DNA of 64,000 nucleotides from a virus (lineage: Duplodnaviria; Caudoviricetes), in the IMG/VR virus record IMGVR_UViG_3300029798_000001; one strand, written 5' to 3'. Below the pieces are notes generated by a model. The model was not told where the DNA came from and ran no database searches. It saw only the letters and a program-made list of their open reading frames with translations. The first letter of the stretch is position 1. Each line of letters opens with the position of its first letter. A program made the translations under genes and the position numbers. Positions 26,804 to 59,311 of this stretch are shown piece after piece.

Positions 26804-27064
26804 ATGTCAGACCGTATTTTTACAGCAGAAGAGACCAAAAAACTTAATCAAATCATAAATGAGGGAATTCAAGTCACAATGGAAATCGAAACTCTTCAAG
26901 GTGGATTAACTGATACCGTAAAAGCAATTTCGGAAGAACTCAACATTAAACCATCTATCCTCAAAAAAGCAATCCGCCTGGCACATAAATCAGAATTTGG
27001 CCGTGAGCAGGATGATCACAGTTTGCTCGAGCAAATACTTACACAAGTAGGTAAGACACTATAA
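26804..27064 (+). CDS. Small DNA-binding protein, T4 DsbA/GapR-like
   Basis: 86-aa helical protein with LTDTVKAISEELNIKPSILKKAIRL, next to the polymerase. Confidence 0.55.
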   Translation: MSDRIFTAEETKKLNQIINEGIQVTMEIETLQGGLTDTVKAISEELNIKPSILKKAIRLAHKSEFGREQDDHSLLEQILTQVGKTL

Positions 27065-27142
27065 ATATTGTTTTACAACAGCGAGTCGCTCACGTTACGA
27101 ACATGAATCAAGGTCAGTGGGCCATAAGCCACAAGGAGAAGA

Positions 27143-29293
27143 ATGAGTTTTGTAGATGCACTTTTTGATCGTGAACACGATCGTATCCATGTAGTTGAGC
27201 GCCGAGACGGTGAGCGGGTATACAAAGAATACCCTGCAAATTTTGTATTCTATTATGAAGACCCTCGTGGCAAGTTTCAAAGTATATTTGGCACACCGGT
27301 AAGTCGTTTTAGCTCACGTAACAATAAAGAATTCCGCAAAGAACTTAGGATACAATCAGGCAAGAAATTATTTGAATCTGATATCAATCCTGTATTTCGG
27401 TGCCTTGAAGAAAACTACAAAGGGCAAGACGGTCCAAAACTTAATGTAGCGTTCTTTGACATTGAGGTGGACTTTGATCCTGAGCGCGGATTTAGCCGCC
27501 CAGAGGATCCATTTAATGCTATCACTGCCATTTCAGTTTACCTACAGTGGTTAGAGCAAATGGTCACCTTGGTAATTCCACCTAAGCATATGAGCAAAGA
27601 AACAGCTCAAGAAATTGCCAACGAGTTTGAAAACACAATCATATTCACTGAAGAAGGAGAACTGTTAAAAACATTCCTAGACTTAATCGAAGATGCAGAT
27701 GCATTGTCGGGTTGGAACTCAGAAGGATTTGATATACCGTACACTGTCAACCGTGTAACTCGTATACTAAGTAAAGATGATACCCGCAGGTTTTGCTTAT
27801 GGAATCAATATCCCAAGAAGCGTACATTTGAACGCTTTGGTGCAGAAAACGAAACTTACGATTTGATTGGTCGTGTACATATGGATTATATGCAATTGTA
27901 TCGAAAATATACATATGAAGAACGCCATAGTTACAGTTTAGATGCCATTGCTGAATATGAACTACAAGAAACTAAAACAGTGTTCGAAGGCACACTGGAT
28001 CAATTATACAATCAAAACTTTAAAACATTTATTGAGTATAATCGACAAGATACAATGATTCTTGCCAAGTTAGATAAGAAACTAAAATTTTTAGATCTAG
28101 CCAACACCTTGGCACATGAAAATACTGTGCTATTGCAAACTACTATGGGTGCCGTGGCTGTGACAGAACAGGCCATTATCAATGAGGCACACGAGCGTAG
28201 TATGGTTGTTCCTAATCGTAAGGAACGCTATTCGGATGAAGATACACAAGCGGCCGGTGCCTATGTTGCTTATCCACGCAAGGGTATACATGAGTATGTA
28301 GGATCAATTGATATTAACTCACTATATCCAAGTGCTATTCGTGCGCTTAATATGGGTCCAGAAACTATTGTGGGGCAACTCCGTCCTACAATGACCGATC
28401 GTTATATTGCCGATAAGATGCGTAGTGGAAGTAGTTTTGCCGCAGCGTGGGAAGGCCTGTTTGGATCATTAGAATATGAAGCTGTAATGGCCAGTGAGCG
28501 CGGCACAGAGATTACAGTAGATTGGCAAGGTGGTGAAGATTCTGTACACAGTGCGGCAGAAGTTTGGAAGATGATTTTTGATTCTAACCAACCATGGATG
28601 CTTAGTGCCAACGGTACAATCTTTACCTATGAAAAAGAAGCAATTATTCCGGGATTGTTAAAACGCTGGTACGCCGAGCGGAAAGAAATGCAGTCCAAAC
28701 TTAAAGAATGTAAAAATGCAGAAGACGAAGAATATTGGGATAAACGACAACTCGTTAAAAAGATTAACCTTAACAGTCTCTATGGTGCTATCCTTAACCC
28801 TGGTTGCCGCTTTTTTGATAAGCGCATTGGACAATCTACCACACTAACCGGTCGTGCTATCGCCAAGCACATGGACGCCTATGTAAATGAATGTATCACT
28901 GGCAAGTATGACCATGTAGGCGAATCAATTATTTACGGTGACAGTGTAACCGGCAATACTCTTATTAAGACTGATTCTGGAGAAATAGCTATTGAAGAAT
29001 TATTTAGACAGACTCCTGAACATTGTATTATTGGTGACAAGGAATATGCTACTGGAGCATTGGCCAAAGTTGTGGGATTTAATGCGTATGAAGATTCTCC
29101 TATAATGAGCAATATATCGTACGTAATGCGACACAAAACAAAAAAGAAACTGTACAAAATTACGCTAGAAAATAATAAGTCAGTCACTGTAACCGAAGAT
29201 CATAGTATAATGGTAGATCGTGACGGATTCCTAATGGAAGTAAAACCCAATGACATCTTGGGTAAAGATTTAATTATCAGTCTGAATACATAA
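27143..29293 (+). CDS. Family B DNA polymerase N-terminal half fused to split-intein N-fragment
   Basis: Exonuclease DIE and YNxxxFD-type motifs, SIDINSLYPS, KINLNSLYG, then IYGD followed by intein SVTG...TEDH; TATAAATA at 27060; RBS AAGGAG. Confidence 0.95.
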   Translation: MSFVDALFDREHDRIHVVERRDGERVYKEYPANFVFYYEDPRGKFQSIFGTPVSRFSSRNNKEFRKELRIQSGKKLFESDINPVFRCLEENYKGQDGPKLNVAFFDIEVDFDPERGFSRPEDPFNAITAISVYLQWLEQMVTLVIPPKHMSKETAQEIANEFENTIIFTEEGELLKTFLDLIEDADALSGWNSEGFDIPYTVNRVTRILSKDDTRRFCLWNQYPKKRTFERFGAENETYDLIGRVHMDYMQLYRKYTYEERHSYSLDAIAEYELQETKTVFEGTLDQLYNQNFKTFIEYNRQDTMILAKLDKKLKFLDLANTLAHENTVLLQTTMGAVAVTEQAIINEAHERSMVVPNRKERYSDEDTQAAGAYVAYPRKGIHEYVGSIDINSLYPSAIRALNMGPETIVGQLRPTMTDRYIADKMRSGSSFAAAWEGLFGSLEYEAVMASERGTEITVDWQGGEDSVHSAAEVWKMIFDSNQPWMLSANGTIFTYEKEAIIPGLLKRWYAERKEMQSKLKECKNAEDEEYWDKRQLVKKINLNSLYGAILNPGCRFFDKRIGQSTTLTGRAIAKHMDAYVNECITGKYDHVGESIIYGDSVTGNTLIKTDSGEIAIEELFRQTPEHCIIGDKEYATGALAKVVGFNAYEDSPIMSNISYVMRHKTKKKLYKITLENNKSVTVTEDHSIMVDRDGFLMEVKPNDILGKDLIISLNT
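28943..29293 (+). mobile_element. Split intein N-fragment (116 aa, Ser1)
   Basis: Starts after YGD with SVTGNTLI; block B VTEDHS; ends at a stop codon. Confidence 0.9.
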
Positions 29294-29320
29294 ATACTAT
29301 GAAGATAGGAGTATCATCAT

Positions 29321-30280
29321 ATGCCAACATGTTTAGAGTGCGGGTATTCAGCCCCAAGATTACAGTGGACACACTTCAAATACAAATGTACCGGAAAATT
29401 CAAAAACGGTAATGAGTATATGTCCGCACACCCCGGTAGTGAGATAATAGATCCAGAATTAAAGAAAAAATACGGGTTTACACTTGACTCGGCTGTCAAA
29501 AAGTATGGTGCTGTGGAAGGTCAAAAACGATGGAATGAGTATTGTGATGCGCAGGCAACCACTAATACTTTTGAATACAAACATGAAAAATACGGTTGGA
29601 CCCGTGAACAGTTTGACGAGTACAATTCATCAAGAGCAGTAACCATTGCAAACATGATCAAACGACATGGTGAAGAAATTGGAGTTGCTAAATGGCAAGA
29701 ATATTGCGAACGACAAGGATATACCAATACCAAAGAATATTTTATTGAAAAGTACGGTGCAATCATTGGCGTTAAAAAATATATTGAGGTTAACAAGAAA
29801 AAGAAAAACCCACACGACCCGGTGAGTATTTCTGAAAAATTAGGAATTACCTTGGACGAGGCGGTAGACATTATCTTGTCGAGAGAAAATTCTGGAAGAA
29901 GATATATTAGTAATCTTGAAGAAGAATTTACAAACATGCTTGAAGATAAAGTAGGACCACTTGACTATACCTCAGCTAAACGACCATTTGGCAAATGGTC
30001 TCATTTATTGAATACCTATGTTGTATATGATATAAAACACGGCAATTGCATTATTGAATTCAATGGTGATTACTGGCATGCTAATCCCAACATTTATGCT
30101 GGCACCGCTACAATAAGAGGTGTCCCGGCGGTTGATATATGGCGCCAGAATGTGTTAAAATTACAAACAGCACAGGATTTGGAATTCAAAACCCTAGTGG
30201 TTTGGGAAACAGAATTTCGAAATGATAAAGTTGGAACAATTAATAAGGTAGCAGAATGGATATTACAAGAACAACCGTAA
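29321..30280 (+). mobile_element. Free-standing Vsr-like/PD-(D/E)xK homing endonuclease between the polymerase halves
   Basis: N-terminal CxxC...H zinc finger, repeated KYG..G..(R/K)W.EY units, C-terminal IEFNGDYWH and VVWE; TAAATA at 29291; RBS AGGAG. Confidence 0.85.
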
Positions 30281-30381
30281 AAAGTATTGATTGTCTCGGT
30301 GAGGTGGATGACTATGTGTATGATCTCAGTATAGAAGATCAAGATCCTTATTTTTTTGCCAATGACATATTGGTGCATAAT
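30256..30381 (+). mobile_element. Split intein C-fragment (42 aa, ends HN, +1 = Thr)
   Basis: Block F VYDLSI and block G HN. Confidence 0.9.
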
Positions 30382-31239
30382 ACCGACTCGTGTTATTTCA
30401 CTGCATACCCTGTGTTGCAAAAAGAAATCGAAGCTGGTACAATGTCTTGGTCGAAAGAAATTGCGGTACAATTATATAACTCTATTGCCGACCAAGTTAA
30501 TGATAGCTTTCCAGGATTTATGGAACAAGCATTTCATGTACCTAGAGAAATGGGCGAAGTGATCAAAGGTGGGCGAGAGATTGTCGCAAGTAAAGGGCTG
30601 TTTATTACCAAGAAGCGGTATGCTGTATTGTATTATGATAAAGAAAATAAGCGTGTAGATACCCACGGTAGTCCTGGTAAAGTAAAAGCCATGGGCCTTG
30701 ATTTAAAAAGATCAGATACTCCCAAGGTTATTCAAGAATTTTTAAGCGAGATTCTCGACGAGGTACTCACAGGCTCCACCAGAGATCAGGTTATTGAAAA
30801 GATCCGCGAATTTAAGTATATTTTTAAAGAGAGGCCGGGTTGGGAGAAGGGTAGTCCTAAGCGTGTAAACAACTTAACCAAATATGGTAAGGAAGAAGAA
30901 AGATTAGGCAAAGCCAATATGCCAGGACATGTCCGTGCTGCACTTAATTGGAATAATCTTCGCAGGATGAATGGCGACAAATATAGTTTACAGATTGTTG
31001 ATGGCATGAAAACAATTGTATGTAAACTAAAATCTAATCCACTTGGCTGGACTAGCATTGGTTACCCTACTGACGAAACACATTTGCCACAATGGTTTAA
31101 AGAGTTGCCGTTTGATGACACCGAAATGGAAGCCACTGTAGTTGATCAAAAGCTAGACAATTTATTAAGTGTATTAGAATGGGACTTGGCCAGTGCTACT
31201 AACACTAAAAATATTTTTCAAACATTGTTCGAGTGGTAA
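30256..31239 (+). CDS. Split-intein C-fragment fused to DNA polymerase B C-terminal half
   Basis: VYDLSI...ILVHN then TDS completes YGDTDS; KKRYA motif downstream. Confidence 0.95.
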   Translation: MDITRTTVKSIDCLGEVDDYVYDLSIEDQDPYFFANDILVHNTDSCYFTAYPVLQKEIEAGTMSWSKEIAVQLYNSIADQVNDSFPGFMEQAFHVPREMGEVIKGGREIVASKGLFITKKRYAVLYYDKENKRVDTHGSPGKVKAMGLDLKRSDTPKVIQEFLSEILDEVLTGSTRDQVIEKIREFKYIFKERPGWEKGSPKRVNNLTKYGKEEERLGKANMPGHVRAALNWNNLRRMNGDKYSLQIVDGMKTIVCKLKSNPLGWTSIGYPTDETHLPQWFKELPFDDTEMEATVVDQKLDNLLSVLEWDLASATNTKNIFQTLFEW

Positions 31240-59233: not shown

Positions 59234-59311
59234 GGGCGGTTAGCATAGTAGGTTAATGCCGGCGACTCATAATCGTCAGAGTGATAGGTTCAAATCCTTC
59301 ACCGCCCACCA
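59234..59311 (+). tRNA. tRNA with CAT anticodon (elongator Met or lysidine Ile2)
   Basis: GGGCGGT/ACCGCCC acceptor stem, GCAT/ATGC D-stem, anticodon loop CTCATAA, TTCAAAT T-loop, encoded CCA; G1:C72 excludes the initiator. Confidence 0.9.

Follow-up and report, generated by a model that had tools for sequence, protein, structure and literature searches.

A candidate natural split Ser1/Thr+1 intein and a free-standing Vsr-like endonuclease gene at the pol-c site of a freshwater phage DNA polymerase

Introduction

Fractured genes with a Vsr-like endonuclease were defined by Dassa, London, Stoddard, Schueler-Furman and Pietrokovski in 2009 (PMC2677866); a late-promoter-like element is reported for 10 of the loci in that study, and most published fractured loci, though not all, carry a hairpin together with such an element upstream of the endonuclease start (PMC2677866). 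The EDxHD homing-endonuclease family has likewise been characterised, with I-Bth0305I as its prototype (PMC3239194). Here we describe a locus of this kind in the family-B DNA polymerase gene (polB) of the virus record IMGVR_UViG_3300029798_000001 (IMG/VR; Duplodnaviria, Caudoviricetes), of which a stretch of 64,000 nucleotides (nt), hereafter the window, was analysed.

Two groups of polymerase inteins are the natural points of comparison. Insertion at YGD|TDS with the residues Ser1, Asn and Thr+1 marks the pol-c allele, which occurs at position III of archaeal PolI, in Mimivirus and as the split intein of Nanoarchaeum equitans (PMC549080). The last of these, Neq Pol, combines Ser1 and Thr+1 with fragments of 98 and 30 amino acids (aa), is thermophilic and needs 50–70 °C (PMC11766414, PMC10189870). 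The second group is represented by the PolB1 intein of Aeromonas phage Aes123, the parent of the cysteine-less tools CL and CLm, for which a structure is available (9HTH; PMC11923092, PMC13014065). Cysteine-less split inteins of phage PolB proteins are already characterised tools (PMC11923092, PMC12707363), and the characterised CP21, LCGC14, GOM-OPS-1 and PolB16 inteins all use Ser+1 (PMC12707363, PMC10189870). A signature of cysteine-independent inteins is the NX motif, a His preceded by Arg or Lys (PMC10189870). Inteins that are both split and cysteine-less permit protein ligation under oxidising conditions and beside thiol chemistry; as of 2026 only four are reported as usable, all with Ser+1, and more candidates are wanted by the authors who report this (PMC13014065).

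The fractured polymerase gene

Analysis of the locus makes it highly probable that the replicative family-B polymerase gene of an uncultured freshwater, T4-related jumbo phage has been fractured at the pol-c site by a mobile cassette consisting of the N-terminal intein half (IntN), a homing-endonuclease gene and the C-terminal intein half (IntC). This conclusion is drawn from what could be observed directly, namely the anatomy of the locus, its conserved residues, the fold of the endonuclease and the recurrence of the locus in many samples. The arrangement is carried by three consecutive plus-strand open reading frames (ORFs) at 27143–29293 (716 aa), 29321–30280 (319 aa) and 30256–31239 (327 aa). 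A preliminary description, made from the DNA and its ORFs alone, had read them as YGD-IntN-stop, a 319-aa endonuclease and IntC-HN-TDS, and this order is present exactly where it had been placed. Its core proposal, a polB broken at YGD|TDS by a natural split Ser1/Thr+1 intein with a free-standing Vsr-like endonuclease, is supported by the ORFs, the intein models and the endonuclease fold. The features of the locus are as follows.

27143–28942, + strand: PolB N-extein, residues 1–600, ending ...IIYGD; exonuclease domain and most of the polymerase domain
28943–29293, + strand: IntN, 116 aa and TAA stop; TIGR01445 and phmmer match to 9HTH
Sites within IntN: Ser1, 28943–28945; Cys28, 29024–29026; NX Arg63-His64, 29129–29134; block B Thr84-Glu-Asp-His87, 29192–29203
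29289–29297, + strand: late-promoter-like motif of T4 type, CATAAATAC; 7/8 match, overlapping the IntN stop codon
29308–29311, + strand: GGAG, likely ribosome-binding site (RBS) of the endonuclease gene, 9 nt before the ATG; GATAGGAGTAT is conserved in the separately assembled loci L003, L004 and L005
29321–30280, + strand: free-standing homing-endonuclease gene, 319 aa; Vsr-like catalytic domain at aa 194–319 (nt 29900–30277)
30149–30151, + strand: endonuclease codon Asn277, at the catalytic-Asp position of relatives
30256–30381, + strand: IntC, 42 aa; TIGR01443 and alignment with Aes123, PA5oct and metagenome IntC sequences
Sites within IntC: Cys13; block F Val21-Tyr-Asp23; block G His41-Asn42, 30376–30381
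30382–31239, + strand: PolB C-extein, 285 aa and stop, TDSCYFTAYP..., with Thr+1 (ACC) at 30382–30384; Pfam DNA_pol_B

At the first junction the N fragment reads ...HVGESIIYGD and continues as SVTGNTLIKTDSGE...DLIISLNT-stop, IntN beginning SVTGNTLIK; at the second, the C fragment reads MDITRTTVKSIDCLGEVDDYVYDLSIEDQDPYFFANDILVHN and then TDSCYFTAYP..., the C-terminal third of the polymerase. The 3' end of the endonuclease ORF overlaps the start of IntC by 25 nt (30256–30280). The N-fragment and endonuclease ORFs lie in the same frame, and read-through from IntN into the endonuclease is excluded because three in-frame stops (TAA, TGA and TAG) separate them. Pfam models recognised DNA_pol_B_exo1 and DNA_pol_B on the N-extein, DNA_pol_B on the C-extein and Intein_splicing on both intein halves. 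Searched against PHROGs, the N-extein matched phrog_262, DNA polymerase (E 2e-142), and it is about 50% identical to the polymerase of phage PA5oct. Joined, the exteins amount to 885 aa, and across IIYGDTDSCYF the joined sequence is colinear with intein-less alleles. A megablast search with the locus gave zero matches to GenBank phages, and relatives were reached at the protein level only.

The split intein

Both halves were recognised by the NCBIfam intein models, IntN by intein_Nterm (TIGR01445) with 50.8 bits against a cut-off of 24.5 and IntC by intein_Cterm (TIGR01443) with 21.7 bits against a cut-off of 15.6, and IntN matched the structure of the Aes123 PolB1 intein (9HTH, phmmer E 8.7e-14). 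Alignment with the Aes123 and PA5oct inteins places block A, Ser1-Val-Thr-Gly-Asn-Thr, immediately after YGD. The NX motif is Arg63-His64 in YVMRHKTKKK, invariant among relatives, and block B (T-x-x-H) is Thr84-Glu-Asp-His87 in TVTEDHSIMV, conserved among relatives. In IntC, block F reads VYD(23)LSI and block G ILVH(41)N(42), followed by the Thr+1 of TDS. The sequence thus has what defines a class 1 intein, with a nucleophile at position 1, block B, the block F Asp, His-Asn and Thr at +1, and also what defines the cysteine-independent NX type, with Arg-His upstream of block B and no Cys at position 1 or +1. The insertion, IIYGD|...|TDSCYF, is that of the pol-c allele (YxD|TDG in archaea).

Conservation of these residues (Ser1, Arg-His of NX, T-x-x-H, the block F Asp, His-Asn and Thr+1) extends over more than 100 protein clusters. 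Among the 120 best IntN homologues, 116 have YGD or YAD directly before Ser1, without the TD of a DTD|S site; of the other four, three start with Ser after a variant motif and one, P0338, has Arg at position 1. Each half contains a single Cys, Cys28 in IntN, which is Ser in L003 and L004, and Cys13 in IntC, which is kept in nearly all close relatives and is Asn or Ser in the active-looking P0313 and P0343; both look non-catalytic. The junction sequences confirm the hydroxyl nucleophiles Ser1 and Thr+1 named in the preliminary description, as Cys28 and Cys13 do its count of one non-terminal Cys per fragment.

A two-chain model was built from IntN with ten extein residues and IntC with 18 extein residues. 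It scored 0.86, with the best control at 0.00; 51 of 78 solved complexes attained this mark, as did 2 of 108 mismatched pairs. The runs shared at least 89% of their contacts, and the predicted local distance difference test (pLDDT) value of the partner was at least 71. This pass may reflect likeness to split-intein complexes that have already been solved rather than binding by this particular copy. In the model, the NX residues (662–664) contact IntC residues 21–22 beside the block F Asp, and Cys13 lies in a strand pairing with IntN residues 70–71, away from the junctions. IntC is acidic (net −8), and IntN bears the basic patch RHKTKKK.

A class 3 mechanism, considered for the clade-conserved Cys13 of IntC, was rejected since Ser1 and the block F Asp are both present. 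It is also countered by the position of Cys13, 10 residues before block F position 4, by its replacement in P0313 and P0343 and by its modelled contact with IntN.

The endonuclease

In tblastn searches, 84% of the 319-aa endonuclease aligned at 38–39% identity with an ORF that likewise stands between polymerase pieces in Aeromonas phages, among them Aes123 and Aes508, where it is annotated as “putative VSR endonuclease”; further matches lay in Lak megaphages, Campylobacter phage CP21 and Klebsiella phages. Pfam and NCBIfam returned zero families for the protein, a phmmer search of PDB sequences gave nothing meaningful, and PHROGs gave only phrog_22677, of unknown function. An AlphaFold (AF2) model from 45 homologues reached a mean pLDDT of 85.5, and more than 92 over the last 120 residues. 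Foldseek ranked Vsr (1cw0, 1vsr) and I-Bth0305I (3r3p) first, all with E above 0.001 for the whole multi-domain model. With a second structural aligner, model residues 194–319 matched Vsr 1cw0_A with Z 11.9, a root-mean-square deviation of 2.9 Å and 113 aligned residues, and the catalytic domain of I-Bth0305I (3r3p_A) with Z 11.1 and 96 of 97 residues aligned. The fold therefore bears out the Vsr-like nature that the preliminary description had given this ORF.

By descent the protein is a member of the EDxHD/Vsr-like family, with an incomplete catalytic set. In the Vsr profile alignment the conserved Arg-Asp of the family falls on Vsr Arg96-Asp97, the second position of which is substituted in the window and is weighed below; the remaining catalytic columns (Asp237, Asn248 and His253, against the Vsr reference set Asp51, His64/Asn, His69 and Asp97) are intact. 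Intein-less alleles that could serve as cleavage substrates exist (L010, L011).

The N-terminal region, which we infer to bind DNA, has a zinc-finger-like motif, Cys4-Cys7-His18-Cys23, followed by three helical YG..G..W..Y repeats. The motif (Cys4-x2-Cys7 ... His18-x4-Cys23, window 29330–29389) is nearly invariant, its residues being kept in 121–124 of 126 window-type endonucleases, and is lacking in relatives of the Aes123 and L008 types, which go with the DTD|S allele. The Cys/His set may be a zinc finger that helps to set target specificity.

Comparison with described systems

The window intein shares with the pol-c allele both its insertion point and its nucleophile set, Ser1/Asn/Thr+1, and with Neq Pol also its natural split. 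The archaeal and Mimivirus inteins differ in being contiguous and carrying LAGLIDADG domains, and the halves of Neq Pol lie in two separate gene pieces without an endonuclease between them, whereas the window intein comes from a mesophilic freshwater phage. By sequence the intein is nearer to the Aes123 group than to PI-PkoII (E 9e-14 vs 1e-3). The polB gene of Aes123 (JN377899), one of the T4-like phages of Aeromonas salmonicida, is likewise broken within the catalytic DTDS motif by a natural split intein with Ser1, an NX Arg/Lys-His and the block B His, has an IntN of about 116–120 aa and an IntC of about 39–42 aa, and carries between the halves a Vsr-like endonuclease gene that overlaps the IntC gene and is the 38–39% identical relative described above. 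Its junctions, however, read YIDTD|SVVGDT ... LVHN|SVYLN, that is DTD|S with Ser+1, whereas the window site lies two residues upstream and uses Thr+1. The two inteins are 35% (IntN) and 48% (IntC) identical, the Aes123 intein has no Cys where that of the window has one per half, the Aes123 endonuclease retains the catalytic Asp and has no CxxC...H...C motif at its N terminus, and Aes123 polB has an additional intein-less split. The window intein is therefore homologous to the Aes123 allele and yet a different allele, a relative and not a member. A “slid” intein, offset by two residues from those of Aes123 and PA5oct, was considered and rejected, YGD|TDS being the classical pol-c site (PMC549080).

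The agreement with the fractured genes of Dassa et al. extends to intein halves on adjacent ORFs, a free-standing Vsr-like endonuclease between them, an endonuclease 3' end that overlaps the IntC start (25 nt here, 6–69 bp in PMC2677866) and an element resembling a T4 late promoter upstream of the endonuclease. The window departs from them in lacking a convincing RBS-sequestering hairpin and in matching the promoter element at 7/8 positions. Like EDxHD enzymes, the endonuclease has a C-terminal Vsr fold after a putatively DNA-binding N-terminal region; unlike them, it has Asn as the last motif residue, and a zinc-finger-like motif with helical repeats instead of a recognised NUMOD.

Among cultured phages, the closest polymerase (about 50% identity) is that of the Pseudomonas jumbo phages PA5oct and vB_PaeM_MIJ3 (PMC6892783), which share the order pol-N, endonuclease, pol-C but insert at DTD|S, use Ser+1 and encode an endonuclease of 560 aa and an IntC of 85 aa. 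The Thr+1 layout itself occurs in the cultured Klebsiella jumbo phage KP13-7 (OP617745; L015:3504-8267), as YGD|SVTGDS..., a 326-aa Vsr-like ORF and ...LVHN|TDS; there the three genes are annotated as hypothetical only, and about 120 residues precede HN in the C fragment. At YGD|TDS, Salicola phage SCTP-2 carries an unsplit, contiguous mini-intein whose last residues are Lys-Asn.

Alleles and mobility

Relatives of the C fragment number more than 3,000. Of the top 120, 41 start with an IntC ending HN|TDS (42 tree rows with the window), two start with a different IntC ending HN|SCYF, and 73 are intein-less, reading IIYGDTDSCYF, with extein identities of up to 91%. On the C-extein tree, intein-bearing and intein-less alleles interleave: the best tree has 12 changes, of which well-supported branches force at least 3, and the supported clade that includes the window comprises 4 rows with an intein and 12 without. 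This interleaving fits a mobile element. Contiguous mini-inteins that lack an endonuclease account for ten of the 120 best IntN homologues, and the IntN tree scatters such contiguous forms among split ones (7 changes, at least 3 forced). Both trees are consistent with a history, of the kind modelled by Dassa et al. (2009), in which the endonuclease gene and the entire cassette were repeatedly gained and lost.

Other alleles affect the same motif. Four relatives (P0263, P0276, P0298 and P0308) have a contiguous pol-c intein from which only TDS separates another intein, with Cys as its first residue (YGD|intein|TDS|C...). Counting YGD|TDS, TDS|C and DTD|S, a span of seven residues in the catalytic motif contains three insertion sites. 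The same polymerase clade also includes a different split intein, at YGDTD|S (L008:203-2217, L007:94-1610), with an IntC 52% identical to that of the window and its own subtype of Vsr-like endonuclease; in this clade a single motif is contested by two intein alleles that lie two codons from each other. In L004 (1578-6987) and L005 (1272-6987) the polymerase has an additional, intein-less break further upstream, made by a 400-aa ORF that contains an HNH-like “HHILPRK” motif; the resulting pieces measure 442/544, 63, 140 and 328 aa, and about 30 conserved residues are missing between the 63-aa and 140-aa pieces. Locus L009 was left out, as the fragmentation of its polB is probably due to sequencing errors.

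Proposed mechanism and alternatives

Splicing, endonuclease activity, promoter use and the dependence of replication on splicing are steps that we infer, and the course would be as follows. Two polypeptides would be produced, PolB(1–600)-IntN(116) and IntC(42)-PolB(285), and IntN and IntC would associate into a HINT fold. Splicing would take the class 1 oxyester route, beginning with an N-to-O acyl shift at Ser1, aided by Thr84 and His87 of block B and by His64 of NX, and proceeding through transesterification to Thr+1, cyclisation of Asn42 and an O-to-N shift to yield a polymerase of 885 aa in which the metal-binding motif, YGDTDS, is intact. The Vsr-like EDxHD endonuclease would be what spread the cassette into intein-less alleles, although in the window lineage it may be weakened or dead, given Asn in place of the last catalytic Asp.

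Several points weigh against this account. The motif over the IntN stop, CATAAATA (29289–29296), matches the T4 consensus TATAAATA imperfectly, at 7/8 positions, and the hairpin upstream of the endonuclease (−8.9 kcal/mol, z 0.02) is no better than those of shuffled sequences. The spliced 885-aa polymerase is a predicted product, and a second polymerase may lie beyond the window, the search having covered 64 kb of the genome only. In the column equivalent to Vsr Asp97, Asp is found in 117 of 126 endonucleases and Glu in 7, while Asn (Gln276-Asn277) is found only in the window and its 98%-identical relative; codon 277 showed zero variants across the four metagenome runs compared. Judging from this one residue, the endonuclease of the window lineage may be attenuated or inactive, and homing may have ended there.

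The promoter needs separate treatment. The preliminary description had placed a late promoter across the IntN stop; a motif is there and the overlap is real, but the match is the 7/8 one given above and not exact. An exact TATAAATA is absent at the IntN stop and occurs in 3 copies in the window, against 7.4 expected by chance. Across the whole window, TAAATA is the most enriched of 2,952 hexamers at −60 to −6 of gene starts, with 14 of its 36 copies in these zones, which make up 4.2% of the sequence (p 9e-11), and the motif copy at the IntN stop lies about 30–31 nt upstream of the endonuclease ATG, a spacing like that of other copies. Both ACATAAATA and GATAGGAGTAT are conserved in L003, L004 and L005, though the inteins are only 58–68% identical. 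A late-type promoter arriving with the endonuclease is therefore plausible, because TAAATA is enriched upstream of genes and the motif is conserved in homologous loci. An RBS-sequestering hairpin was rejected, its energy being equal to that of shuffled sequence and GGAG lying in the loop. The TAAATA enrichment suggests T4-type late promoters with a relaxed first half. One exact TATAAATA, at 27060–27067, overlaps the stop of an ORF at 26804–27064, 76 nt before the polB start.

An alternative to trans-splicing is that the polymerase fragments work unspliced, the intein halves acting as the docking module of a two-subunit polymerase. Split PolB genes without inteins do exist and are annotated as subunits in Aes123 (gp43A/gp43B1), the relatives L004 and L005 have their additional intein-less break upstream, and Aes-type split inteins can splice inefficiently in vitro, at about 30% (PMC11923092). 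The break in the window, however, falls between the two metal-binding Asp of YGDTDS, where a domain of about 160 aa would stay inside the active site. Moreover, the residues needed for splicing only (Ser1, the block B His, the terminal Asn and Thr+1) are conserved across the more than 100 clusters, and a mere docking module would not need them. We regard this alternative as improbable.

Less probable still, to the point of being a marginal concern, is a decaying polB inactivated by a selfish cassette, with another polymerase replicating the phage. The substituted catalytic position of the endonuclease would suit such decay, and the window is only part of the genome. Yet the exteins are full length and, compared with intein-less alleles, up to 91% identical as protein with only about 80% identity at the DNA level; because protein identity so far exceeds DNA identity, the exteins appear to be under purifying selection. 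The layout is also maintained in lake samples taken between 2012 and 2023 and in lineages with identities as low as 67%, and a second copy of polB, of the intein or of the endonuclease was found nowhere in the 64-kb window.

Occurrence in metagenomes

A fractured polymerase gene in many samples is supported by a 1.8-kb stretch over all junctions that recurred near-identically in 20 freshwater and lake metagenome runs belonging to 10 studies (2012–2023); 8 of these runs, from three studies, are possible sources of the window DNA and so not independent. Single contigs from independent freshwater runs covered 28762–30500 and 28912–30428 gaplessly with 0 differences, and another covered 28745–30500 gaplessly with 29 substitutions. 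The same gene order was found in the separate assemblies L003 (a 70-kb contig), L004 and L005; L003 repeats the 716/319/327-aa layout, and its C fragment is 77% identical to that of the window.

The preliminary description had named an assembly artefact as a possible refutation, and although the window is metagenome-derived and two minor contigs carry other joints (28941 to 30433 and 29292 to 30110), a chimera of intein-bearing and endonuclease-bearing molecules is excluded for practical purposes by contigs from separate samples and studies that span IntN, endonuclease, IntC and extein gaplessly and bridge every junction (runs X1, X8 and X10), by the identical order in the three independent assemblies and by the better reading of the other joints as co-occurring alleles.

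The two joints come from single short contigs with sides of about 30 nt and are hints only. In run X8, a short contig connects 28941 with 30433, which is what an intein-less allele from the same lake sample would give, and a 102-nt contig of run X5 joins 29292 to 30110, as would a variant without most of the endonuclease ORF.

Significance of the locus

The layout is real and is probably functional. The locus extends known families: it is another example of a described arrangement that is already used for protein ligation, and it leaves current understanding unchanged. Its interest is moderate, as one more candidate cysteine-less split intein with Thr+1. The preliminary description had proposed a candidate cysteine-independent tool, and this holds in so far as the Cys residues look non-catalytic; its novelty was overrated, the Ser1/Thr+1 combination being long known (PMC549080, PMC11766414). 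Together with hundreds of metagenomic relatives, the locus makes up a mesophilic Ser1/Thr+1 family that is split in nature, comes in many natural variants and has YGD/TDS as its native junction; the published phage PolB tools compared insert elsewhere (DTD|S in Aes123).

It is possible, though on present evidence rather unlikely, that this would be the first mesophilic natural split Ser1/Thr+1 (pol-c) intein to trans-splice efficiently without reductant and orthogonally to CL/CLm and LCGC14, with its clade as a test series for gene breaking. If so, a Thr+1 junction would be added to the toolbox of four usable cysteine-less split inteins, and a clade with intein-less, contiguous, split, endonuclease-impaired and tandem-intein alleles would form a natural series for the gene-breaking model of Dassa et al. 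An essential replication enzyme of an abundant lake phage clade would, if splicing is required as we propose, depend on a selfish element. The clade brings together alleles that represent several stages in the life cycle of intein and endonuclease, and the lineage-specific loss of the catalytic Asp in the endonuclease is among the points of modest interest.

Elsewhere in the window, the sole tRNA gene is a tRNA-Met (anticodon CAT) at 59234–59311.

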